From positions 1,050,001 through 1,082,000 of the forward strand of contig NZ_CP007536.1 in the NCBI RefSeq assembly GCF_000698785.1: a stretch of DNA of 32,000 nt, written 5' to 3'. The notes beneath the pieces are model-generated. The model did no database searches. It worked only from the letters and a program-made list of their open reading frames with translations, and had not been told where the DNA came from. Origin of the DNA: Nitrososphaera viennensis EN76. GTDB taxonomy: Archaea > Thermoproteota > Nitrososphaeria > Nitrososphaerales > Nitrososphaeraceae. The translations under genes and the position numbers were made by a program. This document shows positions 4,745-26,929 of the stretch, piece after piece (within the stretch, counting starts at the first letter, position 1; each line of letters begins with the position of its first letter).

Positions 4745-6166
4745 ATGCCGACCACACTTGCCAACATCAACGCAGGCAACATAGATGAAGTGTCTGCAAA
4801 AGATCCTGCATGGCTTGCAGAGGACAGGAAAAAGGCCATCGCAAAATACCTCTCGCTTCCAAACGAGGTCTCGCCACTCTACTCGAAATACTCTGACGCA
4901 AACAGGATCAAGCCGCAGGGCGTGCACCTGAATTTTGCTCAGGGCGGCAGCAGGCACGCGATAAGCGGCGACCTTGTCAAGAGGCTTGAAGAGCTTGAAA
5001 AAGAGACGGGGATATTGCAGGTGGGCGCCGAGATAAGCAAGATCGTCATTAAAGAGAGCGTAGCAAAGCAGGGAGTAATCGTAACGGGCATCAGGGACGC
5101 AATTTCCAAGCACGCAGACATTGTCAAGGCGCACATGGAGGCAAACCCGCTTGACCACGGCGAGGACAGGTTCATGGCGCTTGAAGCGGCCGCATTCCAG
5201 TCGGGCGTCTTTGTCTACGTTCCAAGGAACGTCGTCCTTGAAGAGCCTATCAGGATCATAACGTCGCTTGCAGACGACGGCACGTCGCTCGTGTCAAGGA
5301 ACGTCTTTGTGGCAGAACAGGGCGCCAAGGCGACCGTTGTGCAAGAGCTGTACGCGCCGGGTACTGGCAACGCTTCCGAAACGCAGCAAGGCTATTTTGA
5401 ATTAATCGAGACATCGGTCAAGCAAAACGCGCACCTTGAAGCAGTCACGCTTCAGGCAATGGGCACGGACACTGTTTGCGTTTCAAACAGGAAGGCGTTT
5501 GTTGAAAGGGACGCCAAGATGTCGTGGTACGTCGGCCTCTTTGGCACCATGCTTTCAAGGTTCAAGACGGACAGCATCATGAAGGGCCAGGGCGCGACCG
5601 CCGAAGACGTAGAGATAGTCTTTGGAGTAAGCAACCAGTCGTTTGACATCATGTCGAATTTGATCCACAACGGCCAGTTCTCCCGCGGCAAGGTGCAGGT
5701 CAAGTCGGTCATGAAGGACACCTCAAAGTCGCTGTTCAAGGGCATGATAAAAATCGGCAAGGACGGCAAGGGAACGGAATCGTACCTTGCAGGCCACGCA
5801 ATCCTGCTTGACAAGGGCGCCAAGTCAGACTCGATACCGGGCCTTGAGATCCTGACAAACGAGGTCAGGGCGACGCACTCGGCCTCGGTAGCCCAGATTG
5901 ACGAGAACCAGATATTCTACCTCACCACGAGGGGCCTGAGCAGGGAAGGCGCCAAGCGCGAGATAGTCTCGGGTTTTCTCGAGCCGCTGTCAAGAAAGAT
6001 GGGCCCGACAATAAGGGCGTGGATAAACTACCTGATAGAGAACAAGTGGCAGGGCAACCCACTCATGCTTCGCGCCGACGAGGCGATGGAGCAGATCCTC
6101 GAAGTCGAGAAATCGCGCTACCGCGAGACGCAGGACATCTTTGAAAAGCACTACAAGTACAGGTAG
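4745..6166 (+). CDS. sufD: Fe-S cluster assembly protein SufD
   Basis: 473 aa SufB/SufD-family beta-helix protein directly after sufB. C-terminal VRATHSASVAQIDENQIFYLTTRGLSREGAKREIVSGFL is typical of SufD. Confidence 0.9.
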   Translation: MPTTLANINAGNIDEVSAKDPAWLAEDRKKAIAKYLSLPNEVSPLYSKYSDANRIKPQGVHLNFAQGGSRHAISGDLVKRLEELEKETGILQVGAEISKIVIKESVAKQGVIVTGIRDAISKHADIVKAHMEANPLDHGEDRFMALEAAAFQSGVFVYVPRNVVLEEPIRIITSLADDGTSLVSRNVFVAEQGAKATVVQELYAPGTGNASETQQGYFELIETSVKQNAHLEAVTLQAMGTDTVCVSNRKAFVERDAKMSWYVGLFGTMLSRFKTDSIMKGQGATAEDVEIVFGVSNQSFDIMSNLIHNGQFSRGKVQVKSVMKDTSKSLFKGMIKIGKDGKGTESYLAGHAILLDKGAKSDSIPGLEILTNEVRATHSASVAQIDENQIFYLTTRGLSREGAKREIVSGFLEPLSRKMGPTIRAWINYLIENKWQGNPLMLRADEAMEQILEVEKSRYRETQDIFEKHYKYR

Positions 6167-6175
6167 TAGAAAGAG

Positions 6176-6499
6176 ATGGAAGAGGAAGAGTGGGTGCGCG
6201 TCTGCGACGCCGGCTCGCTTTCAAGTGGCGAGCTGGTCGAGTTTGACCACAGAAGCAAGAAACTGATGGTTGCAAAAATGGGAAATGATGTCTATGCTAC
6301 AGACAGGATATGCACCCATGCCTACGCAGACCTGACAGGGGGCTTTGTGAACGAGGGCGAAAAGACGGTGACCTGCCCCCTGCACCTTTCTGCCTTCAAG
6401 TTGACAGACGGCGCGCCGCAGAACCCTCCTGCCACTGCCCCCCTTAAAACTTACAAGGTTAAAATACAGGATAACGCAATTTACATCAAGATCGATTAA
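6176..6499 (+). CDS. Rieske [2Fe-2S] domain ferredoxin
   Basis: CTHAYADL (CxH) and CPLHLSAF (CxxH) Rieske ligand boxes. 107 aa. Embedded between sufD and sufS. Confidence 0.85.
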   Translation: MEEEEWVRVCDAGSLSSGELVEFDHRSKKLMVAKMGNDVYATDRICTHAYADLTGGFVNEGEKTVTCPLHLSAFKLTDGAPQNPPATAPLKTYKVKIQDNAIYIKID

Positions 6500-6503
6500 G
6501 ATT

Positions 6504-7751
6504 ATGATGCAGAAAGGCGCCCTCAATGTTGAAAAGATCCGCAAAGATTTCCCCATCCTGAAGCGGAAGGTGATGGGTGGCAAGCCCCTGGTATACCTCG
6601 ACAACGCGGCAACCACGCAAAAGCCGCTTGCAGTCATTGACGCCATACACGACTATTACACGAACTACAATTCCAACATCCACAGGGCGGTGCACCAGCT
6701 CGCAGAAGAGGCGACCAAGGCGTACGAAGATACGCGCGTAAAGATTGCCAAGTTCATAAATGCTCGCTCGACAGACGAGATAATTTTTACCCGCAACACG
6801 ACAGAGGCGATAAACCTTGTCGCGTACTCGTGGGGAAGGGCCAACATAAAAAAAGACGACAGGATAGTGATTACAGAGATAGAGCACCACTCCAACATTG
6901 TGCCGTGGCAGATACTGACGCAAGAAAAGGGCGCAAAACTGGAATACATCGGGGTCGGCGACGACGGCTACCTGAAGATGCACGAATACAAAAAGTACCT
7001 TGACTCTGGCAAGGTCAAGCTCGTGTCCGTGTCGCACATGTCAAACGTGCTTGGCACCATAACCCCGATAAACGAGATAATCAAGATGGCACATGAAAAG
7101 GGCATCCCGGTGCTGGTCGACGGCGCACAGTCGGTCCCCCACATGCCGGTCGACGTCCAAAAGATGGACTGCGAGTTCATGGCGTTTTCTGCTCACAAGA
7201 TGCTCGGCCCGACGGGCGTCGGCGTGCTGTACGTAAAGCGCGAGCTGCTTGAAAAGATGCCGCCGTTCATGGGCGGAGGCGACATGATAAAAGAGGTGCA
7301 CAAGTACGAAACACGCTACAACGACCTGCCGTACAAGTTCGAGGGAGGCACGCCCAATATCGCCGACGTCATCGGCTTTGCCGCCGCAATAGACTACCTT
7401 GAAAAGATCGGCATGGACAGGGTCAGGGAGCACGAAATCGACATCACAAAATACGCGCTTGACAGGGTTGCGCAGGTAAAGGGAGTGACGATATACGGCC
7501 CGATGAATGCAATAGACAGGGGAGGGGTGGTTTCATTCAACATCGGCGACATACACCCGCACGACCTTGCGACCATCATGAACGACCACGGAGTCGCCAT
7601 CAGGTCGGGACACCACTGCGCGCAGGTGCTCATGGAGCGCCTCGACGTCGCGGCGACTTCGAGGGCAAGCTTTTATATCTATAACACCAAAGAGGAGGTC
7701 GACGTGTTCATTGAGGCTCTATCTGAGGCAAGGAGGCTGTTCAAGATTTGA
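6504..7751 (+). CDS. sufS: cysteine desulfurase SufS (class V aminotransferase)
   Basis: 415 aa with NAATTQKP, HHSNIVPWQ, the PLP-lysine context FSAHKMLGPTGVGVLY and the active-site loop RSGHHCAQ. Confidence 0.95.
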   Translation: MMQKGALNVEKIRKDFPILKRKVMGGKPLVYLDNAATTQKPLAVIDAIHDYYTNYNSNIHRAVHQLAEEATKAYEDTRVKIAKFINARSTDEIIFTRNTTEAINLVAYSWGRANIKKDDRIVITEIEHHSNIVPWQILTQEKGAKLEYIGVGDDGYLKMHEYKKYLDSGKVKLVSVSHMSNVLGTITPINEIIKMAHEKGIPVLVDGAQSVPHMPVDVQKMDCEFMAFSAHKMLGPTGVGVLYVKRELLEKMPPFMGGGDMIKEVHKYETRYNDLPYKFEGGTPNIADVIGFAAAIDYLEKIGMDRVREHEIDITKYALDRVAQVKGVTIYGPMNAIDRGGVVSFNIGDIHPHDLATIMNDHGVAIRSGHHCAQVLMERLDVAATSRASFYIYNTKEEVDVFIEALSEARRLFKI

Positions 7752-8176
7752 GTGACGACATTTACCGCGAAATAATACTCGATCATTACCGCAACCCGAG
7801 GAACAAGGGCAAGATACAGAACGCAGACGTCAGCATACACGATTCAAACCCGCTTTGCGGCGACGAAATTGACATCCACCTGAAGGTCGACGGCGACAAG
7901 ATAAAGGACATCAAGTTCGAGGGCCGCGGCTGCGCCATAAGCCAGGCAAGCGCCTCGATGCTGACAGAGATGGTCATGAACAAGCAGCTCACGTCGGTAA
8001 AGGATCTGACAAAGGACGATATTCTGGAGAACATTGGCCTCACGAACCTAGGCCCGGCAAGGATCAAGTGCGCCCTTTTGTCGCTCAAGGTGCTAAAGCT
8101 TGGCATGGTAAAGTACTATGCCGACAGGGATCCTGCGTCAGCCAAAAAGCTGCAGGATGACACGAGAACGCTTTAG
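7748..8176 (+). CDS. sufU: SufU/IscU-like Fe-S sulfur-transfer/scaffold protein
   Basis: Has the three conserved Cys contexts NPLCGDE, GRGCAISQAS and RIKCALL. The TTG start at 7748 overlaps the sufS stop (7749-7751), suggesting translational coupling. Confidence 0.85.
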   Translation: MSDDIYREIILDHYRNPRNKGKIQNADVSIHDSNPLCGDEIDIHLKVDGDKIKDIKFEGRGCAISQASASMLTEMVMNKQLTSVKDLTKDDILENIGLTNLGPARIKCALLSLKVLKLGMVKYYADRDPASAKKLQDDTRTL

Positions 8177-8179
8177 GCC

Positions 8180-8524
8180 ATGTCGACTCCAAAGGTAAGC
8201 AGGCAGGACATACGCAAGGTAATATCTGACAATTTCAACGACACGGACTATCGTTTTTCAAACGACGAGATCCTAGGCTACCTCAACGATATGGACAGGT
8301 ACAAGGCGGCAAACCTTGACGTCCTTGACTTTGAGGACGTGCTTTTAGAGATGGAAGAGTCGGGTTTTTTACGCCCGATTGCGCAGAATTTCAACACGCG
8401 CTACTACAAGATAATGACAGAGCTTGAAGCCAGGACGTGCAAGGACTGCAACACGGTTTCATGGTTTGCAGAAGCAGAAGAGCCAAAGCTGTGCCCGCAG
8501 TGCAGATCCAAGAACATGGCTTAG
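8180..8524 (+). CDS. hypothetical protein with C-terminal zinc ribbon
   Basis: 114 aa. CKDC-x17-CPQC at the C-terminus. ATG 4 nt after the sufU stop, so it is probably the last gene of the suf transcription unit. Confidence 0.6.
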   Translation: MSTPKVSRQDIRKVISDNFNDTDYRFSNDEILGYLNDMDRYKAANLDVLDFEDVLLEMEESGFLRPIAQNFNTRYYKIMTELEARTCKDCNTVSWFAEAEEPKLCPQCRSKNMA

Positions 8525-18187: not shown

Positions 18188-19846
18188 TCAGCTATGAAGC
18201 TCTGTCTCTGGGTGGAATGCCGCCCATTCAAACCAGAACCCTTCGTCAAATGGAAGGCGACTCAGTTGCTTGCCCTTCAGCGGCCCTTCGATTGCCCTCC
18301 CGTCAAAGTCCCACACGCTTGACGTCTGTGCGTCCATAATCTTGCCATCCTGGTACCGAAAGTCCAGAACAACCTTGCCATCGCCATCATTATCATCATC
18401 ATCCAGTAATGTTCTGTCGAACAACCTGGCACCAAATGAATAGACGGAGAACAGTGCTACCGGTTTTGCATCAATTTCGTCATTAATCACGTGCTTGTCT
18501 TCCACGTCTTGGAGTTTGTATGCCTTGAAGGTGCCGGAATTTTCAAGCCCAATCACAATCTCTTTTGAGCCGAGCCTGTCGTCGCGGTGGGAAACTGGAA
18601 ACAGGATGTCCGGGCTTGTGTAATAGTCGCCGTACGGGTCGGAGCCGTAAGGCCGGCCATAACCTGTATCCTGAGAGAGTACCTTTGATTGCAGGTGCAG
18701 CTCTTTCCAGTCTTTCCAGTATGCCAGGTCAAACGGAACCCGCTCTAGCTTCACCCCCGCATATTTGCCGGCAATTCCCTGCCCGAGCGCCTGGCTCCAG
18801 AGCGACTCGCTAGTTCTGTCATACATCACGAGGTTGCTGTTGTACAGCTTGCCCGAAGTCCCGAATTCCACTACAGCATCACCTACTGTGCGCTTGAACA
18901 CCTGGTTGGTAAAGCAGAGAGGGCAGTATGTGACTGCCACGGGCACTCCACCAACGTGGTCGTTCACAACCTCGTGCCAGACCATGATGCGCAGAGGGTA
19001 CGCCCTGATGTCGCCGTTGATTTCAAGCCCGAGCACAAGGTCAGAATCCTCAAGCTTTGCGTCTTTCACTGAAACAAACTTTGGGTTGTCTATCGACGGG
19101 ATCCCGTCTCGTGGAGGGCCTCCATTCACAATCTTGTCTGGCGGCACCATCAGGAAAGCTGCAGGCCGATCATCTGTCGCCGCGGCTGTTGCATCATTAC
19201 TTAGCAGCTGCTGCTGGTAGATAGCGGCGGCTGCTGATGCAATGACCACGACTGAGAGGACGATAGAACCAACCAATATCGCCAGGGGCTTAACAATGCC
19301 AGCCGGAGGTCTGGGCGCCATTTTCGATATGCGGCGATACAGCTTTACGCCATTGAGGGCTGCCAGGCCCAGCACCGACGCCGTGGCGACGTAGGAAAGC
19401 GGTTTTGAATAGTCAACGAGGAATGCCGAGACAGCAGTGCCAAAGACTGACGGAAGAAAAGATAGCAAAAGGAGCCAGCTTCCGCAACAGCCAAGCGGGA
19501 CAAGCGAAAAGAACGAGAAAAACGAGCCGACTGCGCTGCCGGAACCTGCACTGAACCGGCTGCTTCTTTTTTCAAGGTTGCATCCGAGGCTTCTCCCATA
19601 GCTGGCAAACAAGGTCTGCGCAGCTACCGCCATCGAGGTGCCGCCAATGACAACAGGGTTTGCCGAAAAAGCAGCCTGGATGGCTGAAAGGGCAGGGAGG
19701 CTTGGAGTAGTCAGCACGACTACAAGCAGGTACAGGGACATCGTTATGCCGCCTGCTAGCAGACTCTTTGCCAGCGCATTTCTTTCCATGTAGCCCAGGC
19801 GCCGCTGCTGCAAACTTGTCGCTAGCCATAATTCGCGCTTGTTCAT
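18188..19846 (-). CDS. fusion protein: Cys-containing polytopic membrane module + TM linker + DUF3179 domain
   Basis: The C-terminal about 330 aa carry DUF3179 signatures (PRDGIPSIDNPKF, VAVTYCPLCFT, TSGKLYNSNLVMYD). The N-terminal about 185 aa are paralogous to the 190-aa protein at 23960-24532: Cys loop, then GCCGSWLLLL in a TM helix, ending in RRISKM. Confidence 0.85.
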   Translation of the reverse strand: MNKRELWLATSLQQRRLGYMERNALAKSLLAGGITMSLYLLVVVLTTPSLPALSAIQAAFSANPVVIGGTSMAVAAQTLFASYGRSLGCNLEKRSSRFSAGSGSAVGSFFSFFSLVPLGCCGSWLLLLSFLPSVFGTAVSAFLVDYSKPLSYVATASVLGLAALNGVKLYRRISKMAPRPPAGIVKPLAILVGSIVLSVVVIASAAAAIYQQQLLSNDATAAATDDRPAAFLMVPPDKIVNGGPPRDGIPSIDNPKFVSVKDAKLEDSDLVLGLEINGDIRAYPLRIMVWHEVVNDHVGGVPVAVTYCPLCFTNQVFKRTVGDAVVEFGTSGKLYNSNLVMYDRTSESLWSQALGQGIAGKYAGVKLERVPFDLAYWKDWKELHLQSKVLSQDTGYGRPYGSDPYGDYYTSPDILFPVSHRDDRLGSKEIVIGLENSGTFKAYKLQDVEDKHVINDEIDAKPVALFSVYSFGARLFDRTLLDDDDNDGDGKVVLDFRYQDGKIMDAQTSSVWDFDGRAIEGPLKGKQLSRLPFDEGFWFEWAAFHPETELHS

Positions 19847-20952: not shown

Positions 20953-21345
20953 TTATTTGGAGCCGAGCGTCGCATAGCATGTTCCGCATTTGGATTTGTA
21001 TCTATATTCAAGGCCAAATCCGACTGCAAGCATAGCTATAAGCGCAGTCCAAGTAACCCATGCTGGCAGATTTACCACTCCTATCGTGTCTAAAAGATCC
21101 AGAATGCCAAGTCCCAAGAATCCCGGTCCGGTTATTTTGCAGTGGTATCTGCCGCATGAGCCGTAATTGACCAGACACAATGCACTTGCTGCAAACCAGC
21201 CCGCGACTAGCGCCCATCCTTCATACGGAGATGGCATCAAGTTATCTGCCAAAACCATGTATCCGATTACTGCTAGCCAACCCCACAGGGGAATCTCCCT
21301 ATGCCTAGCCACAGGTTCAACCGGTTGTCGATTGTTCTGCTCCAC
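20953..21345 (-). CDS. Cys-rich four-TM membrane protein, unknown family
   Basis: 130 aa with a GTG start. Four predicted TM helices. Cys in TM2, loop SCGRYHCKITGPG, and C-terminal KSKCGTCY. Preceded by the same 25-bp promoter box as merB. Confidence 0.6.
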   Translation of the reverse strand: MEQNNRQPVEPVARHREIPLWGWLAVIGYMVLADNLMPSPYEGWALVAGWFAASALCLVNYGSCGRYHCKITGPGFLGLGILDLLDTIGVVNLPAWVTWTALIAMLAVGFGLEYRYKSKCGTCYATLGSK

Positions 21346-22152: not shown

Positions 22153-22830
22153 TCAGCACATCTTGCAGCCCGACATTATGTCCTGATACTTGTGGAGGTG
22201 TATTTCTTTGAGGGTTTTGTAAACATCGTTTGCCGAATAGAACGTCTGGTCAGGATGCTCCGCTATCCATTTGGACGCTGTTTCAGGTGAGCTGAAGAAG
22301 TTGACATTATTGCAGCCGCTTCCCCGGATGTTTTTAACATCTATGTTCTTTACCCATGATACAACGGCGCTCTTGGGATCAACTTTCTCTACTCTGTCAG
22401 GCGTTACACTGATGCGGATTTTCTTGCCGGTTACGGGGTCAGGGGATTCTATGTTGGCATTTTGTTTGAGCATGACCGGGAAAGCCAATGCGTCTGCTGC
22501 GCACCATGTATACAGCCTTCGACCGTCAACCTCGTAGACATGTGGAGTTGGAACCAAAGTCAGCCCAAGCCCTACTATGTTGCCTTCCTTGTCAAATTCT
22601 GCTCCAAACCCTCTAAGTGTAGAGGTCATACTGTCTGGAGATATTCCAAGGCGCATCGCTACTTCATCAGGAGGCACAGGGCAGCCATTTACCAAGAGCT
22701 GCCAGGTCTGACCGACGATACGTCGTCGCTCTGAACCCAGACTTTCATAGATACCTGTTAGAATCTTATCAAATGCTTGCTCTACGTTATTTGCTGTTTT
22801 CACTCTACTGTTTCTCATGGTTTTTGCCAT
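22153..22830 (-). CDS. merB: organomercurial (alkylmercury) lyase MerB
   Basis: FDKEGNIVGLGLTLVPTPHVYEVDGRRLYTWCAADALAFPVML aligns with the MerB core (catalytic Cys-x2-Asp, WCAxD). GCNNVNFFSSPETASKWIAEH matches the second catalytic Cys region (FCCHVHFFAS...W..KH). There is an extra C-terminal GCKMC. Confidence 0.9.
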   Translation of the reverse strand: MAKTMRNSRVKTANNVEQAFDKILTGIYESLGSERRRIVGQTWQLLVNGCPVPPDEVAMRLGISPDSMTSTLRGFGAEFDKEGNIVGLGLTLVPTPHVYEVDGRRLYTWCAADALAFPVMLKQNANIESPDPVTGKKIRISVTPDRVEKVDPKSAVVSWVKNIDVKNIRGSGCNNVNFFSSPETASKWIAEHPDQTFYSANDVYKTLKEIHLHKYQDIMSGCKMC

Positions 22831-22910: not shown

Positions 22911-23378
22911 CTATCGTTCCATCACAAGCTCTGTCTTTCTAAATCCGCCCAGCTTGTAGATGGAGAATAGCACTATGGCTATTGATATTGCAGTAAAAAC
23001 AGGCGAGTACATCGTTAGGAACAGTGTCGGTCCTAATGGCAAGAGTACGCCTATGAATGAAAAACATGCTGGACAAACGCCAACCATGAAGCCAACAACT
23101 GAACCGGCGAAGCCTGTCCTTGCTGCCTCTGGCTTGCAGTTAAAGCACTTGTTCCTTGTGAATAGATAGAGCGAGATGAACACGCCAAACAGGATGGAGA
23201 ATGCCATGTATGGTATCGAGCTCCAAGGCTTCTGCTGTAGGTCCAAAAACCATATGTCAAATGCAAGCCAAGTGTTTATCAGCTGTATCAAAGGGAGAAG
23301 AAAGAAAATTCCTGTAGCTGATAGAGCCGCTATAGCAGGCTTGTATTTTACAGCAGAAAGAAGCCTTATGCTTACCAT
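22911..23378 (-). CDS. membrane protein with two CxxC motifs (loop CFNC, intramembrane CPAC)
   Basis: 155 aa, about 4 TM. RNKCFNCKPE, then GFMVGVCPACFSFIGVLLPLGP inside a TM helix. The C-terminus ...YKLGGFRKTELVMER resembles the end of the 190-aa paralog. The ATG is 9 nt after the thioredoxin gene stop. Confidence 0.7.
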   Translation of the reverse strand: MVSIRLLSAVKYKPAIAALSATGIFFLLPLIQLINTWLAFDIWFLDLQQKPWSSIPYMAFSILFGVFISLYLFTRNKCFNCKPEAARTGFAGSVVGFMVGVCPACFSFIGVLLPLGPTLFLTMYSPVFTAISIAIVLFSIYKLGGFRKTELVMER

Positions 23379-23387
23379 TTCCTACCA

Positions 23388-23957
23388 CTACGCAAGAAAC
23401 GGTTCGAGCACCTGCTTTGCTTTTGAATATTCAAGCGGGTTGACATCTACCCATTTTATTATGCCATTGCTGTCAAATACATATTTTGTATCAAGATATC
23501 GCACCTTGTATTCCTGTGGCATCTGTTCGCTTTCCGCAACATACCAATCGCTCCTGCCATACCTGTCTTTCCAGTCAATATATTGCTGATCTGTCTCTCT
23601 CGGGTCTACAAACACTATCAATACATTGAACGCATTTCCGCCTGTCTTATCATCAAGTCTTGCAAGGTTCTGAGCTCCTATCTGGCATGGAGTGCACCAT
23701 GTTGTTGTAAAGAAAATAAGCACTGGCTTGCCTGCAAATGTTTGCTTTGTTATGCTGCCCTTTTCAGGATCTCTGAGGCTGAAGCCAGGGGCAGAGTCGC
23801 CAACCTGCAATCCTTGAACATTTTCTTTTCCTGAAGCGGTGGTGAGGCCTGATCCGCTGGAGGCCTGTGATGAAAAGCTCGATGCTACAACTGCTATTAT
23901 CACTGCGGCTGCTACAGCTCCTCCTATGACTACATACTTCTTCTTATTGTCGGTCAT
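23388..23957 (-). CDS. membrane-anchored TlpA/ResA-like thioredoxin-fold thiol:disulfide oxidoreductase
   Basis: Start placed at ATG 23957 (MTDNKKKYVVIGGAVAAAVIIAVVASS, an N-in signal anchor), 2 nt after the upstream stop. Thioredoxin active site FTTTWCTPCQ. AhpC/TSA-like GDSAPGFSL entry. 189 aa. Confidence 0.85.
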   Translation of the reverse strand: MTDNKKKYVVIGGAVAAAVIIAVVASSFSSQASSGSGLTTASGKENVQGLQVGDSAPGFSLRDPEKGSITKQTFAGKPVLIFFTTTWCTPCQIGAQNLARLDDKTGGNAFNVLIVFVDPRETDQQYIDWKDRYGRSDWYVAESEQMPQEYKVRYLDTKYVFDSNGIIKWVDVNPLEYSKAKQVLEPFLA

Positions 23958-23959
23958 TC

Positions 23960-24532
23960 TCAGGATCTCTCCATTTTGGATATCTTTCTTGACATGAGAT
24001 AAGTTCCGGCAGCCAAAACTGCTACTGTCAGCGGAGCCATGTACTTGCTGTAAATGGATAGAGAAGAAAACGCAGTCGGACCTATTGCAAGGGCAAGCAA
24101 TCCTCCACCACAGCATGAAAAGCTTGTGAAGAAGGCAGGAACAAGGCCAAACAACCCTTTCGATTCTGGTCTTTTTCTCGTTCCACATGCTTTTGCAAGC
24201 CTTCTTGAATAGAACATGAGTGCAGTATTAATGCCAACCAGAATCGAGGATGCTGCAAGGAAGGCAAGGGCTCCATAAAAGATGAAGAAGAATACATTGT
24301 CAGTGGGAATGGCGGATATTCCAAGATAAGTCGCCCTGAAGACAGGAATGCCCGTGGCCGAAGAGAGATTGGGAACATATGATACTATCCCAACTGTTAC
24401 CATGTAGATTATCGCATATGCCAGACCTGATGCAATGGCTATTGTTCTATACTTTGAAGTTCTAATTACATGAAAAATAGGCGTAAGCAAAGAACCAGCA
24501 GTGTGGGGGCTTTGCATTTTTTTCCTCGTCAC
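23960..24532 (-). CDS. membrane protein with loop Cys and intramembrane vicinal CC
   Basis: 190 aa (GTG at 24532; alternative ATG at 24517 preceded by GAGGA). About 4-5 TM. LAKACGTRKRPESKG, then FFTSFSCCGGGLLALAIGP, with C-terminal SRKISKMERS. Paralogous to the N-terminus of the DUF3179 fusion and to the 155-aa protein. Confidence 0.7.
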   Translation of the reverse strand: MTRKKMQSPHTAGSLLTPIFHVIRTSKYRTIAIASGLAYAIIYMVTVGIVSYVPNLSSATGIPVFRATYLGISAIPTDNVFFFIFYGALAFLAASSILVGINTALMFYSRRLAKACGTRKRPESKGLFGLVPAFFTSFSCCGGGLLALAIGPTAFSSLSIYSKYMAPLTVAVLAAGTYLMSRKISKMERS

Positions 24533-24591
24533 TATTACTTCACAATAGATGGGATTTAAGCTAGCAAGTTTATGGCACGATAGTCACTATT
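24528..24591. promoter_or_regulatory. ATAGTCACTATT-family sites in the divergent region upstream of hxlR-type gene
   Basis: GTCACTATT at 24528-24536 and ATAGTCACTATT at 24580-24591 (palindromic ATAG-N3-CTAT core). TTAAAT (about 24554-24559, minus strand) and CTATAAAAAAG (24614-24624) are candidate divergent TATA boxes. Confidence 0.5.
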
Positions 24592-24659
24592 GCCGAGGAT
24601 AGTTATGTCAATGCTATAAAAAAGAAAGCCCTTATACTATCTATCCTGTAGTTTAAGGC

Positions 24660-25055
24660 ATGGCCAAGCCTGGTAAAGCGATATGCCTCTGCCCGCTGGA
24701 AGGAGTGATAGACATAATCAGCAAGAAATGGGCTCTTTTGATAGTGAATGAAATAGGCAACCACGGGAGGATACGCTACAATGATTTGATGAAGGAGATA
24801 CAGGGAATAAGCCCAAAGACGCTTGCAGATACTCTCAAAGAGCTGGCAAAATATAACTTGATAACGAGAGAAGCTTTCAACGAGATTCCCCCAAGAGTTG
24901 ATTATCTTTTGACAAAGGATGGCGAGGAGCTCAGGCAGGCTATAATACCGATATTGCAATGGGCTCTGACAAAGAAAGGAACTGTAGTTGCTCATTGCTC
25001 TTGTTCTATGATTCCTAAGGGAAAAAGAATAGGAAAGGAAGATCTTTCTCTCTAA
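24660..25055 (+). CDS. HxlR-family winged-helix transcriptional regulator
   Basis: CPLEGVIDIISKKWALLIVNEIG...RYNDLMKEIQGISPKTLADTLKELAKYNLITREAFNEIPPRVDYLLTKDGEEL matches the HxlR signature. Extra Cys pairs: CLC at the N-terminus and CSC near the C-terminus. Confidence 0.85.
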   Translation: MAKPGKAICLCPLEGVIDIISKKWALLIVNEIGNHGRIRYNDLMKEIQGISPKTLADTLKELAKYNLITREAFNEIPPRVDYLLTKDGEELRQAIIPILQWALTKKGTVVAHCSCSMIPKGKRIGKEDLSL

Positions 25056-25204: not shown

Positions 25205-25465
25205 ATGCTTTGTTGCGTTGGACTGTTTGCGGGGGTTATAGCCGGTGCCTATTTAGGAGTGCCATGGGCTCCTTATCTTGCGATCCCTTTGGGAGCAGCG
25301 GGCGGGCTCTTGGGCGACATAACGATATTCCGTGCCTTTGAAAGAAAAAGGGAGTCAAAGGAACAGCAGCAAACTGCCATAGGTAAGCCATGTTCTGCTG
25401 CCATCCTAAATCTGAAGAGGAAGAAGAAACAAGATCAAATTGTTGTAGTGGCAGAAAGCCGCTGA
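25205..25465 (+). CDS. small two-TM protein with N-terminal vicinal Cys pair (MerF/MerE-like architecture)
   Basis: MLCCVGLFAGVIAGAYLGV (TM1 with CC at residues 3-4). Second TM is YLAIPLGAAGGLLGDITIF. Charged tail with one Cys. Ends 33 nt before merA. Confidence 0.6.
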   Translation: MLCCVGLFAGVIAGAYLGVPWAPYLAIPLGAAGGLLGDITIFRAFERKRESKEQQQTAIGKPCSAAILNLKRKKKQDQIVVVAESR

Positions 25466-25498: not shown

Positions 25499-26929
25499 AT
25501 GATAATGAAAAATGGCAGGTATGACCTGATAATTATCGGTGGCGGGGCAGCTGCATTTAGCGCAGCCATCAAAGCCAACAGGCATGGCGTGAAAACTGCA
25601 ATGATTGAACGTGCAATGCTTGGCGGCACGTGCGTGAATGTAGGCTGCGTGCCTAGCAAGAACCTTTTAGGCGCAGGGGAAATATTGCACTCTGCCAAGC
25701 ACCCTTCCTATCCATCGGTGTTTTCATGCGATTCTGATTTTGATTTTGCCAAGACGATTGAAAGTAAGGATGCGCTTGTAAGGGGATTGCGCAAGCAAAA
25801 GTATTATGATGTGCTACAGTCACTTGAACATGTGGAGCTCGTACAGGCCGACGCTTCATTTGTCTCTCCAAAGAAAGTCAAAATTGTTGATGATGATGGC
25901 AGGCTATTCGAGGCCGACAAGTTCATCATAGCCACTGGCTCTTCGCCTTCTGTTCCGAGGTTCAAAGGAATAGAGAATATGCAATATCTGACGAACAATG
26001 GGGCATTGGCACTTAAGGAAAAGCCTTCTTCAATGATTGTCATAGGCGGCAGAGCTCTTGGTCTTGAATTTGCACAGATGTATGCTAGGTTTGGCGCCAA
26101 GGTGACTCTGCTGCAGAGAAGTGATAGGATTATTCCTGACCACGAGCCTGAAATATCACAAGGACTGCACCAGCATCTGACTGAAGAAGAAGGAATAGAA
26201 ATCATCACGGACGTGAATGTGCGGGAAGTATGGCAAAAGAATGGAAGCAAGTTTGTCCGTGCATCGGTAAAAAATAAGGAAGAGCGAGTGTTTGAAGCAG
26301 AGCAGTTGCTTATGGCAACTGGCAGAAGACCCAATACTGCTGACCTGCATCTGGAAAACGCTGGCGTAAAACTGAGAGACGATGGAGCGATAATTGTCAA
26401 CTCTGAAATGCGAACTTCGGCGTCTCACATATGGGCGGGCGGAGACGTTGTCGGAGAGCCAATGCTTGAAACTTTGGCAGCAAAAGCAGGCGCAACCGCT
26501 GCCGAGAATGCATTGACAGGCGGCCACAAAAAGATAGACTTGCTTTCTGTGCCGTCGGCGGTATTTACCTCCCCTCAGGTAGCATCCGTTGGGATGACTG
26601 AAGAACAAATGATGCAGAAATATGGCTACTGCTCTTGCCGTACTCTGCTCATGAAAGATGTTCCCAAGGCTCTGACGGTCAACGATACAAGAGGCCTGAT
26701 CAAGATGGCTGTCGATCCAAAGAAGAATAATCGCATAGTTGGCGTGCACATTCTTGCAAGCATAGCTGCTGACATGATTCACGAAGCAGTCGTGGCTGTA
26801 AAATACAGGCTGACTATAGATGATATCATAGACACGGTGCATGTGTTTCCGACGATGTCTGAAGCGATAAAGCTGGTTGCGACCGCATTCAAGCAGGATG
26901 TAAGCAAACTCTCATGTTGTGCAGAATAG
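25499..26929 (+). CDS. merA: mercuric reductase MerA (core enzyme, no NmerA domain)
   Basis: YDLIIIGGGAAAFSAA FAD fold. Redox-active GGTCVNVGCVPSK. C-terminal FKQDVSKLSCCAE is the diagnostic MerA vicinal Cys pair. GAGGG lies 6-10 nt upstream of the ATG. Confidence 0.93.
   Translation: MIMKNGRYDLIIIGGGAAAFSAAIKANRHGVKTAMIERAMLGGTCVNVGCVPSKNLLGAGEILHSAKHPSYPSVFSCDSDFDFAKTIESKDALVRGLRKQKYYDVLQSLEHVELVQADASFVSPKKVKIVDDDGRLFEADKFIIATGSSPSVPRFKGIENMQYLTNNGALALKEKPSSMIVIGGRALGLEFAQMYARFGAKVTLLQRSDRIIPDHEPEISQGLHQHLTEEEGIEIITDVNVREVWQKNGSKFVRASVKNKEERVFEAEQLLMATGRRPNTADLHLENAGVKLRDDGAIIVNSEMRTSASHIWAGGDVVGEPMLETLAAKAGATAAENALTGGHKKIDLLSVPSAVFTSPQVASVGMTEEQMMQKYGYCSCRTLLMKDVPKALTVNDTRGLIKMAVDPKKNNRIVGVHILASIAADMIHEAVVAVKYRLTIDDIIDTVHVFPTMSEAIKLVATAFKQDVSKLSCCAE

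Follow-up and report, generated by a model that had tools for sequence, protein, structure and literature searches.

How does Hg(II) reach a mercuric reductase that has no NmerA domain? Mer surveys have found that early-branching archaeal lineages, including the Thaumarchaeota, carry essentially only MerA and, because of this, the route by which Hg(II) arrives at the NmerA-less archaeal enzyme is a question. It is raised by the mer locus of the soil ammonia-oxidizing archaeon Nitrososphaera viennensis EN76, which we analyzed within a stretch of 32,000 nucleotides (nt) of its genome (contig NZ_CP007536.1, positions 1,050,001 to 1,082,000; hereafter the window, in whose own numbering coordinates are given). 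Three minus-strand open reading frames (ORFs) lie here between merB and merA. They code for TM155 (22911..23378 in the ORF list), a protein of 155 amino acids (aa) with four transmembrane segments (TMs) that is the conserved membrane partner of the second product; Trx (23388..23957; 189 aa from MTDNKKK), an N-terminally anchored, extracytoplasmic thioredoxin-fold protein with a WCTPC motif; and TM190 (23960..24532; 190 aa from a GTG codon), a 4-TM membrane protein distantly paralogous to TM155. Weighing the evidence presented below, we put at about even the chances that this module is a mercury-handling accessory system acting as a MerP/MerT-like relay of Hg(II) to MerA. It provides concrete candidates for Hg(II) delivery to archaeal MerA in ammonia-oxidizing archaea, abundant nitrifiers whose key enzymes face the cell exterior.

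Gene structure and the thioredoxin-fold protein

The three genes are tightly packed. Read directly from the letters, the junctions are TGA-ga-ATG (2 nt) between TM190 and Trx, and TAG followed by 9 nt and ATG between Trx and TM155; together with the ORF list, they bear out the arrangement, gaps and coordinates proposed in the original prediction, an earlier note made from the sequence of this DNA. The 190-aa ORF is 100% identical to NVIE_1289, of which the NCBI version is 185 aa long, and its true start is probably the ATG at 24517, which gives the 185-aa product. The motifs that had been pointed out (KACGTRK and FSCCGGGLLALAIGP in TM190, WCTPC in Trx, CFNC and VCPACF in TM155) were all recovered, and their cysteines are invariant, or nearly so, among homologues.

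Trx was predicted to face outward, and its lysine-rich N-terminal segment followed by one TM agrees with an N-in anchor; a TM anchor or a lipobox was present in every family member examined. In Pfam the protein matches AhpC-TSA (1.3e-13), Redoxin (7.5e-11) and also Thioredoxin_8, while its NCBIfam scores lie far under the cutoffs for ResA (46.8 vs 170), TlpA (36.9 vs 230) and DsbE (27.4 vs 123). Trx thus has the fold, the CxxC and the outside anchoring of a protein of the TlpA/ResA/CcmG type, but neither the family scores nor the cis-proline. When aligned to PDB entries 2yp6, 4hqz, 4nmu and 5um7, the cis-proline site, which reads IPT or LPT in such proteins, carries an aspartate (RYLDTKYVFD), and LDT was found at this site in 18 of the 18 family members examined. 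Among thioredoxins and cytochrome-maturation proteins the cis-proline is more conserved than the CxxC itself; it has been proposed to prevent metal binding and is thought to be part of the substrate-binding site (PMC2757866). None of the three module proteins matched the HMA fold of MerP-type proteins (PF00403) in Pfam. The CxxC half of Trx scored marginally above the Pfam gathering cutoff for SCO1-SenC (23.5 vs 22.8 bits); this match is partial, and the Sco signature, CxxxC plus a histidine, is absent from the protein.

Among 72,556 plasmids, the best match of Trx was a gene labeled 'TlpA family' from a plasmid of Pseudonocardia, at 34% identity and 6e-20, with the second-best match at 2e-8. 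The surrounding locus is a mer locus, merB-merA-small CC protein-ArsR, divergent from genes for a Trx-like protein and a CcdA, and the same architecture was seen on plasmids of Pseudarthrobacter, Rhodococcus and Streptomyces, four actinobacterial loci in all. The Trx-like proteins of these four loci keep the CxxC, and LDT, LGT or LST replaces the cis-proline. The Pseudonocardia protein and the window Trx share TTT[WY]C[TV]PCQ.GA, FVFVDP and LDTK; the other actinobacterial ones are less close, and tblastn with the Pseudonocardia sequence as query gave no further plasmid copy at E<1e-10. The window Trx fits the 'mer ORF3' type, that is, an outward CxxC thioredoxin-fold protein without cis-proline beside a cysteine-bearing membrane protein in a merA/merB locus. 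A CxxC kept without the cis-proline provides a simple sequence marker by which mer-recruited thioredoxin-fold proteins can be recognized in bacteria and archaea alike. The claim that the system was undescribed holds for the membrane proteins, which are unannotated, but not for the pairing as such, since the actinobacterial loci combine a cis-proline-less Trx-like protein with a CcdA/DsbD-type protein. We also noted that the Streptomyces locus carries a VKOR-family gene and a second mercuric reductase gene downstream.

A family of four-TM cysteine proteins

TM155 has 171 close homologues, and every one whose source is named comes from the Thaumarchaeota; the 73 homologues of TM190 are mostly from Nitrososphaerales. 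In TM155 the cysteines C81, C102 and C105 are invariant and C78 is conserved in at least 90% of the sequences, within the motifs KCxDC and GVCPACFSFIG. C116, C140 and C141 are invariant in TM190, which has the motif PAFFTSFSCCGGGLLALAIGP. The placement of these residues is similar in the two proteins: C78xxC81 of TM155 lies in loop 2 and C102PAC105 at the start of TM3, and TM190 has the single cysteine C116 in loop 2 and the vicinal pair C140C141 in TM3. Charge counts over the families are consistent with an N-in/C-in topology with four TMs. Because the cysteine-bearing loop 2 is the most positive segment (mean K+R of 4.2 in TM155 and 5.0 in TM190), the positive-inside rule would place the loop cysteines of both proteins on the cytoplasmic face, with the CPAC or CC pair within TM3. 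This topology disfavors the alternative, raised in the original prediction, of a DsbB/VKOR-like relay.

The kinship of TM155 and TM190, originally described as paralogs, was not detected by BLASTP; it appeared at the profile level, where the TM190 and TM155 families aligned with an hhalign E-value of 4.9e-4. A profile search of 1.8 billion cluster representatives returned 64 family representatives only, and a hidden Markov model (HMM) built from these 64 matches the TM190 family at 28.6-34 bits (28.6 for TM190 itself). A third subfamily, TM169, is also matched by this wide-family HMM; its TM3 carries GVCTSCG, and a cytoplasmic cysteine is conserved at its C-terminus. The TM169 gene directly follows that of TM155 in Nitrosopumilales loci and lies between merA and trx in one further locus, L024 (coordinates within the numbered loci: L040 8500-9009; L002 2778-3278; L001 846-1331; L006 5534-6046; L007 10502-11002; L024 4964-5476). 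A third homologue search, started from the distant alignment, brought back mainly close relatives. On these profile comparisons TM155, TM190 and TM169 form one small, unannotated 4-TM superfamily, characterized by a TM3 cysteine pair and a predicted cytoplasm-facing cysteine, and the usual module would consist of Trx and two paralogous 4-TM cysteine proteins. The most distant members, in L022 and L023, are solitary, without Trx or merA, and hence uninformative on function.

Family-model scans took in the three window proteins and 128 family members (82 close, 46 distant). Neither Pfam nor NCBIfam gave a match for the window membrane proteins and the 82 close homologues, whether to MerT/C/F/E, DsbD/CcdA, DsbB, VKOR or MauE/DoxX; the Mer models (PF02411, PF03203, PF11431, PF05052) gave none even at E<=10, and the CcdA/DsbD models DsbD_TM and DsbD_2 likewise had no Pfam match among the module membrane proteins and their homologues. 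Sequence-profile searches of PDB found no relatives of the membrane proteins. These profile checks had been proposed as a way of probing the prediction, and neither window membrane protein was matched in them; with Foldseek included (see below), the membrane proteins fit no characterized non-metal family.

Faint signals of similarity to Mer transporters were found elsewhere in the superfamily. MerE models match 2 of the 46 distant members (Pfam 8e-4, NCBIfam 1.8e-4), with TM1-TM2 of MerE lying over TM3-TM4 and its CPC aligned to CPAC. With hhalign, probabilities were 21-35% against MerC, the CxxC being in register, and 9-22% against a merged Mer core, all with shallow Mer profiles of 1-10 sequences; plasmid MerC sequences vary too little among themselves to allow a deeper MerC profile. 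In window-shuffled controls, a score as high as the observed one came up in 0 of 60 and 2 of 100 trials. These results are suggestive of a superfamily built on a divergent Mer-type 2-TM core, with two additional helices in front of it. At the level of single traits, a membrane-embedded cysteine pair is present in hydrophobic segment 3 of both proteins (CPAC, C102 and C105; CC, C140 and C141), and so, on the predicted topology, is a second cytoplasm-face site, a pair in TM155 and a single cysteine in TM190. What is absent is the position of the Mer pair in the first TM, the pair being here in the third of four hydrophobic segments.

Linkage to merA and the neighboring genes

To follow the module in other genomes, we combined TM155-profile scans of genome and metagenome collections with look-ups of single homologues and obtained 87 loci with a substantial TM155 match; the counts that follow are lower bounds, include near-duplicate contigs and are biased towards close TM155 relatives. 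Trx lies immediately upstream of TM155 in at least 63 of the 71 loci with at least 700 nt of upstream sequence. MerA is present in 28 of the 45 loci with at least 2.6 kb upstream, and in 17 of these 45 it is directly upstream on the same strand. In the 22 loci flanked by 5 kb or more on the upstream and 3 kb or more on the downstream side (long-flank loci), MerA and HxlR were each found in 18, TM190 in 8, DUF3179 in 7, CC86 in 6 and MerB in 3. The linkage spans Nitrososphaerales, Nitrosopumilales, a metagenome-assembled genome of Caldarchaeales and other uncultured lineages that are probably archaeal. The genes are thus a real conserved unit whose association with merA, merB and hxlR recurs across archaeal lineages, and the survey, including the co-occurrence check that the prediction had called for (merA in 18/22 long-flank loci), argues against homologous triads occurring mostly without mer genes. 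The module as first drawn needs one amendment: Trx and TM155 are conserved together, but the exact triad is not, since the second paralogue varies and TM190 itself occurs in 8/22 of the long-flank loci.

Gene order varies around this core. In Nitrosopumilales it is hxlR, then, divergently, (small Cys-rich ORF)-merA-trx-TM155-TM169, whose reading frames overlap (in L040, merA 6060-7454, trx 7444-8004 and TM155 8001-8486). Distant members retain the order under other regulators: L025 has the order ArsR-merA-trx-TM155, L024 the order ArsR...HMA-Grx-TrxR-DUF7128-merA-paralogue-trx-TM155, and in L027 a PadR-trx-TM155 arrangement without merA stands next to an HMA P-type ATPase gene. Every linked MerA has the CVNVGC site and the C-terminal SCC[AVT]E. 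Genes for YHS and HMA proteins lie near the module in some loci, and small DUF7128 proteins flank merA and the TM155-like gene in L024. As separate observations, a VTT/DedA-domain gene is located less than about 1 kb from the TM155-family gene in two unrelated distant loci (L022 6919-7428 and L024 7180-7815), and the merA of L039 (4914-6366), which adjoins hxlR and Trx-TM155, is split between two overlapping called ORFs (350 and 148 aa), close to a gene for an IS240-family transposase; judged by this sequence, the L039 gene is possibly decaying.

In most loci the regulator gene, hxlR, is oriented divergently to merA or trx. Each of the 14 full-length HxlR proteins linked to the module keeps four cysteines, an N-terminal ICLCP and a C-terminal HCxC (HCSC in the window), and an N-terminally truncated ORF in L005 keeps the C-terminal pair only. 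These pairs are candidate Hg(II)- or thiol-sensing sites, as far as can be told from their conservation. L003 and L016 encode a second paralogue of HxlR, in which the motifs read LFCP and ECSC. By eye, an element near hxlR in the window spacer (CATAAACTTGCTAGCTTAAAT) resembles a motif in L003, L008, L015, L038 and L040; the hxlR-proximal element, shared by distant lineages, is approximately CTA[CT][GA]AACTT[TG]-TA-TTAAAT and is sometimes duplicated. It may be an HxlR operator overlapping a TATA box. Inverted repeats in the divergent promoter were unconvincing when considered alone.

In the window, the HxlR-family regulator (24660..25055, plus strand; Pfam HxlR 4e-21; four invariant cysteines) is followed by CC86 (25205..25465, plus strand) and by merA (25499..26929, plus strand), and these three genes are transcribed divergently from the module across the 127-nt promoter/operator region between TM190 and hxlR (24533..24659). 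MerA has features typical of its family: a TIGR02053 score of 580.7 bits against a cutoff of 454, a redox-active CxxxxC (CVNVGC) and a C-terminal vicinal cysteine pair in its SCCAE tail; the NmerA domain is lacking. The organomercurial lyase gene merB (22153..22830, minus strand; Pfam MerB 8e-33) begins 80 nt downstream of TM155 on the same strand and scores 187 bits against NF033555, slightly below the cutoff of 200. Pfam and NCBIfam scores thus confirm the three neighbors that had been named. The GC content is 0.44-0.48 over 21-27 kb compared with 0.52-0.58 in most of the remaining window; the low-GC dip spans a gene for an HTH_10 regulator, merB, the module, hxlR, CC86 and merA, and L038, a close relative, has its genes arranged differently there. 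From its composition, the 21-27 kb region is probably a horizontally acquired or rearranged island. At its edge lies an ORF for a cysteine-bearing polytopic protein (20953-21345, minus strand; 130 aa, with CGRYHC and a C-terminal CGTC) that had no family match and was not matched by the TM155/TM190 superfamily HMM either.

CC86 is an 86-aa, 2-TM protein that begins MLCC inside its first TM helix. Homologues are encoded in L006 (371-595), L007 (3065-3292) and L013 (13219-13413), and those of L006 and L007 also end in a C-terminal SCCG pair; MerF likewise combines a CC pair in TM1 with a C-terminal CC pair. Against the small CC proteins of the actinobacterial mer loci, hhalign gave CC86 a probability of 46% (E 2e-4). 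To judge by this layout, CC86 is a candidate MerF/MerE-like transporter, and it may be the small protein of this island that actually imports Hg(II). The earlier statement that no merT/P/C/F/E/H is present therefore stands by Pfam and NCBIfam but is qualified by this MerF-like protein beside merA.

Two further kinds of protein accompany the module. In Nitrosopumilales loci, ORFs of 46-49 aa lie between hxlR and merA (L003 2887-3036; L006 2846-2992; L007 7883-8029; L016 7854-7997; L040 5910-6050), with a CxxC...FCS..C pattern and GCC(C) at the C-terminus. Their similarity to prokaryotic metallothionein is weak and falls short of the cutoff (2e-6 to 8e-3), and the one of L006 matches zf-FCS; the ORF is absent from the gene calls of L040, and the other loci carry no gene calls. 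Their motifs suggest that they are likely cytoplasmic metal-binding chaperones. The second is the DUF3179 protein, encoded in the window at 18188..19846 (minus strand; 552 aa; Pfam DUF3179 4.7e-107). TM190 is similar to its N-terminal membrane domain (BLASTP 2e-6), LGCCGSW included. In L097 a TM190-like gene (5309-5881) and a DUF3179 gene (5878-6996) are separate and adjacent, directly upstream of Trx-TM155; L004, L010 and L016 were likewise noted; in relatives the two parts are encoded by separate neighboring genes, in some cases immediately upstream of Trx-TM155. The motif of DUF3179 is CPLC, and the family has been listed among the UxxC selenoproteins. The DUF3179 protein forms a second pairing of a cysteine membrane module with an extracytoplasmic CxxC domain.

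A proposed Hg(II) relay, a possible electron relay and the known mercury systems

The mechanism that we propose would run as follows. The anchored, outward-facing Trx, with its CxxC kept and its cis-proline changed to aspartate, would capture Hg(II) as a bis-thiolate. The metal would pass by thiol ligand exchange to the TM3 pairs of TM155 (CPAC) and TM190 (CC), two proteins that would probably act as a hetero-oligomer, and then to the cysteines facing the cytoplasm, which are those of the CxxC in the TM155 loop and, in TM190, C116. The next acceptor would be the flexible C-terminal cysteine pair of the NmerA-less MerA, which reduces the ion to Hg(0); in other lineages, a small Cys-rich cytoplasmic protein with a GCC(C) tail might accept it before MerA does. 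The divergently encoded, four-cysteine HxlR would probably sense Hg(II) or thiol stress and control both promoters.

We favor this Hg(II) relay over an electron relay because the cis-proline is lost, because the extra cytoplasmic cysteines are not needed by an electron relay and are typical of Hg transporters (they are a hallmark of MerT, MerF and MerC), because the genes are tightly coupled to merA, and because the weak resemblance to MerE and that to MerC share one register. The other metal-trafficking genes of these operons (GCC(C) small proteins, YHS, HMA and the MerF-like CC86) also support it, as does the kinship of Trx with the cis-proline-less Trx-like proteins of actinobacterial mer loci, whose CcdA-type partners bear CC tails. 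Several observations pull in the opposite direction. Homology to the Mer transporter superfamily was not significant by any single test, and Foldseek searches of PDB with AlphaFold2 models of moderate confidence (pLDDT 72) gave no credible or informative fold match. Loci L009, L017 and L087 have Trx-TM155 without merA within 8-10 kb, as do the shorter contigs L086, L088-L092 and L097 with less flank; all of these except L009 form a soil Nitrososphaeraceae group in which neither merA nor hxlR occurs in the available DNA, several kb on both sides for L017 and L087 and short on one side for the others. Such loci weigh against an importer, because import with no reductase to follow it should be harmful, except where merA is located elsewhere in the genome. 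In L008 and L009 a cytoplasmic thioredoxin fusion occupies the position of merA, directly upstream of Trx-TM155, and L024 additionally encodes a TrxR-like protein and a glutaredoxin, all of which fit an electron relay; a TlpA-like protein with CcdA is, moreover, a textbook reducing pair. The locus sample was drawn with TM155-derived peptide patterns and holds near-duplicates, so that its counts are not independent, and a literature search found no paper mentioning the locus tags of the module. The Nitrosotenuis fusion (L009 8904-9446; L008 approximately 575-1085) consists of a DUF7128 Cys-rich domain, a thioredoxin with WCPWC and its cis-proline kept, and a C-terminal CC.

What, then, are the alternatives? 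The 4-TM cysteine proteins could be an archaeal substitute for CcdA/DsbD that passes electrons from a cytoplasmic dithiol donor, a thioredoxin or the C-terminal cysteine pair of MerA, to Trx, so that Trx keeps the Hg-exposed surface or its own Hg-binding thiols reduced while Hg(II) enters by another route such as CC86. We regard this main rival as unlikely, though by no means far-fetched. In the four actinobacterial mer loci a Trx of this kind has a bona fide CcdA-family protein as its partner, a position that TM155 takes in the archaea; the replacement of merA by a thioredoxin fusion and the redox genes of L024 point the same way; a TM190-like module is found fused to, or next to, DUF3179, whose C/UxxC motif is of redox type; and loci without merA would be tolerable for a harmless housekeeping relay. 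However, Trx has lost a residue thought to belong to the substrate-binding site, and the loop CxxC, the C-terminal cysteine and the CC tails of the mer-linked CcdA proteins fall outside the known CcdA mechanism. The family shows no sequence or profile similarity to CcdA/DsbD, both of its TM cysteines lie in one helix rather than in two pseudo-symmetric helices, and Hg is not removed from thiols by thiol-disulfide exchange. It is possible, too, that Hg(II) binding and electron relay combine, the membrane proteins keeping an Hg-binding Trx reduced while CC86 imports the metal.

The module might instead serve general handling of soft metals (Cu(I), Ag, Cd, Hg) at the surface of these copper-dependent ammonia oxidizers, mer genes having been recruited alongside. 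The marginal SCO1-SenC match of Trx, the PadR-regulated pair by an HMA P-type ATPase in L027, the soil Nitrososphaeraceae clade with the pair beside DUF3179 rather than merA, and the YHS and metallothionein-like genes nearby would agree with this. But merA is the most frequent single neighbor, in many cases with translational coupling, conservation of the regulator motifs goes hand in hand with that of the MerA motifs, the similarity to Sco is partial and lacks the signature, and copper genes are not consistently linked; we consider this explanation distinctly unlikely. It is very improbable that the module lacks any functional link to mercury, as ordinary envelope thiol-oxidoreductase genes that came to lie beside mer in an acquired island: the GC dip and the varying gene order between relatives would suit such a view, but the adjacency recurs in several archaeal orders, with varied gene orders, with HxlR, ArsR and PadR regulators and with overlapping frames, and we rejected chance adjacency on the ground of this recurrence. 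A DsbB/VKOR-type enzyme was rejected as well, on account of the predicted cytoplasmic loop cysteines and of the absence of Pfam, PDB-sequence or Foldseek similarity. DsbB/VKOR proteins do resemble the module in being four-helix proteins with a loop cysteine, a CxxC at a TM start and a thioredoxin-fold partner, but their loop cysteines are on the outer face.

If the Hg(II) relay is correct, TM155/TM190/TM169 with a cis-proline-less Trx would be a third, largely independent solution to Hg(II) transfer across the membrane, after the MerT/C/F/E and the actinobacterial CcdA types, hetero-oligomeric, widespread in ammonia-oxidizing archaea and protecting their extracytoplasmic copper-dependent ammonia-oxidation machinery; for this fuller proposal we see somewhat less than an even chance. 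A more radical form of it, in which the C-terminal cysteine pair of MerA feeds NADPH-derived electrons into the relay and so makes it a flavoenzyme-driven transmembrane disulfide reductase, seems improbable to us. A literature search found no report linking HxlR with merA or describing a Trx/membrane accessory module in archaeal mer loci.

A close parallel to the module is provided by the actinobacterial mer loci, which, like the window, have a regulator, a small CC membrane protein, an outward Trx-like protein and a cysteine membrane protein beside merA/merB. ArsR corresponds there to the HxlR of N. viennensis, a MerF/MerT-like small protein (CCAGP in the first helix, C-terminal ACCPP) to CC86, the Trx-like protein to Trx, and CcdA to TM155 plus TM190. 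The membrane partner is where they differ: an approximately 320-aa CcdA-family protein with a C-terminal CC tail in actinobacteria, and one or two unrelated-looking 4-TM proteins in archaea. The mer-linked CcdA proteins (L034-L037) have 313-330 aa and a C-terminal extension with an extra hydrophobic segment and one or two CC pairs; hhalign of our membrane family against these four gave probabilities of at most 1.4%. The actinobacterial Trx-like/CcdA genes reportedly trace back to the Streptomyces lividans mer operon (Sedlmeier and Altenbuchner, 1992), and UniProt MERT_STRLI is assigned to the DsbD family. To our knowledge, the function of the two proteins has not been dissected biochemically, and the archaeal module revives the question of their role. 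TrxA- and CcdA-domain proteins of this kind go by the database names 'mercury transporter' or 'mercury resistance operon ORF3' (2025 review table, PMC12195606). Outside mer, the gene pairs CcdA-ResA/TlpA and DsbD/ScsB-ScsC/D likewise place a polytopic cysteine membrane protein beside an anchored TlpA-like thioredoxin-fold protein, and Trx lies in the TlpA/ResA/AhpC-TSA sequence neighborhood, as the CcdA-partner thioredoxins do. CcdA/DsbD proteins, however, have six or eight TMs with one cysteine in each of two pseudo-symmetric helices, compared with four TMs and both cysteines in one helix, and in contrast to the CcdA/TlpA-type pathways the module Trx is without cis-proline.

The Sulfolobus mer operon (ArsR-type MerR, TRASH-domain MerH, MerA, MerI) is also archaeal and also has accessory genes that are not of bacterial type. 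A role has been described there for the TRASH domain, and the small Cys-rich cytoplasmic metal-binding proteins predicted beside merA in Nitrosopumilales loci are a Sulfolobus-like trait; these, however, match metallothionein and FCS-finger models weakly, and no Trx-like or 4-TM cysteine proteins have been described for Sulfolobus mer. With bacterial MerP and MerT/C/F/E the module shares an extracytoplasmic cysteine-pair protein, membrane proteins with an embedded CC or CxxC and a predicted cytoplasmic cysteine, and an operon that includes merA and is controlled by a regulator of the metal- or thiol-sensing kind; weak MerE and MerC signals lay TM3-TM4 of the family on TM1-TM2 with the cysteine motif in register. 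It differs in that MerP has the HMA ferredoxin-like fold in place of the thioredoxin fold, in that the cysteine pair is in TM1 of the bacterial proteins and in TM3 of the four TMs of TM155 and TM190, in that no Pfam or NCBIfam Mer model fits the window proteins, in the usual presence of two paralogous membrane proteins, and in an HxlR-type regulator instead of MerR. An outward cysteine-pair protein and cysteine membrane proteins feeding MerA are thus known from bacteria, and Trx has its actinobacterial counterparts; what is new is the membrane-protein superfamily, the two-paralogue arrangement, the HxlR-type regulator and the wide occurrence in ammonia-oxidizing archaea.

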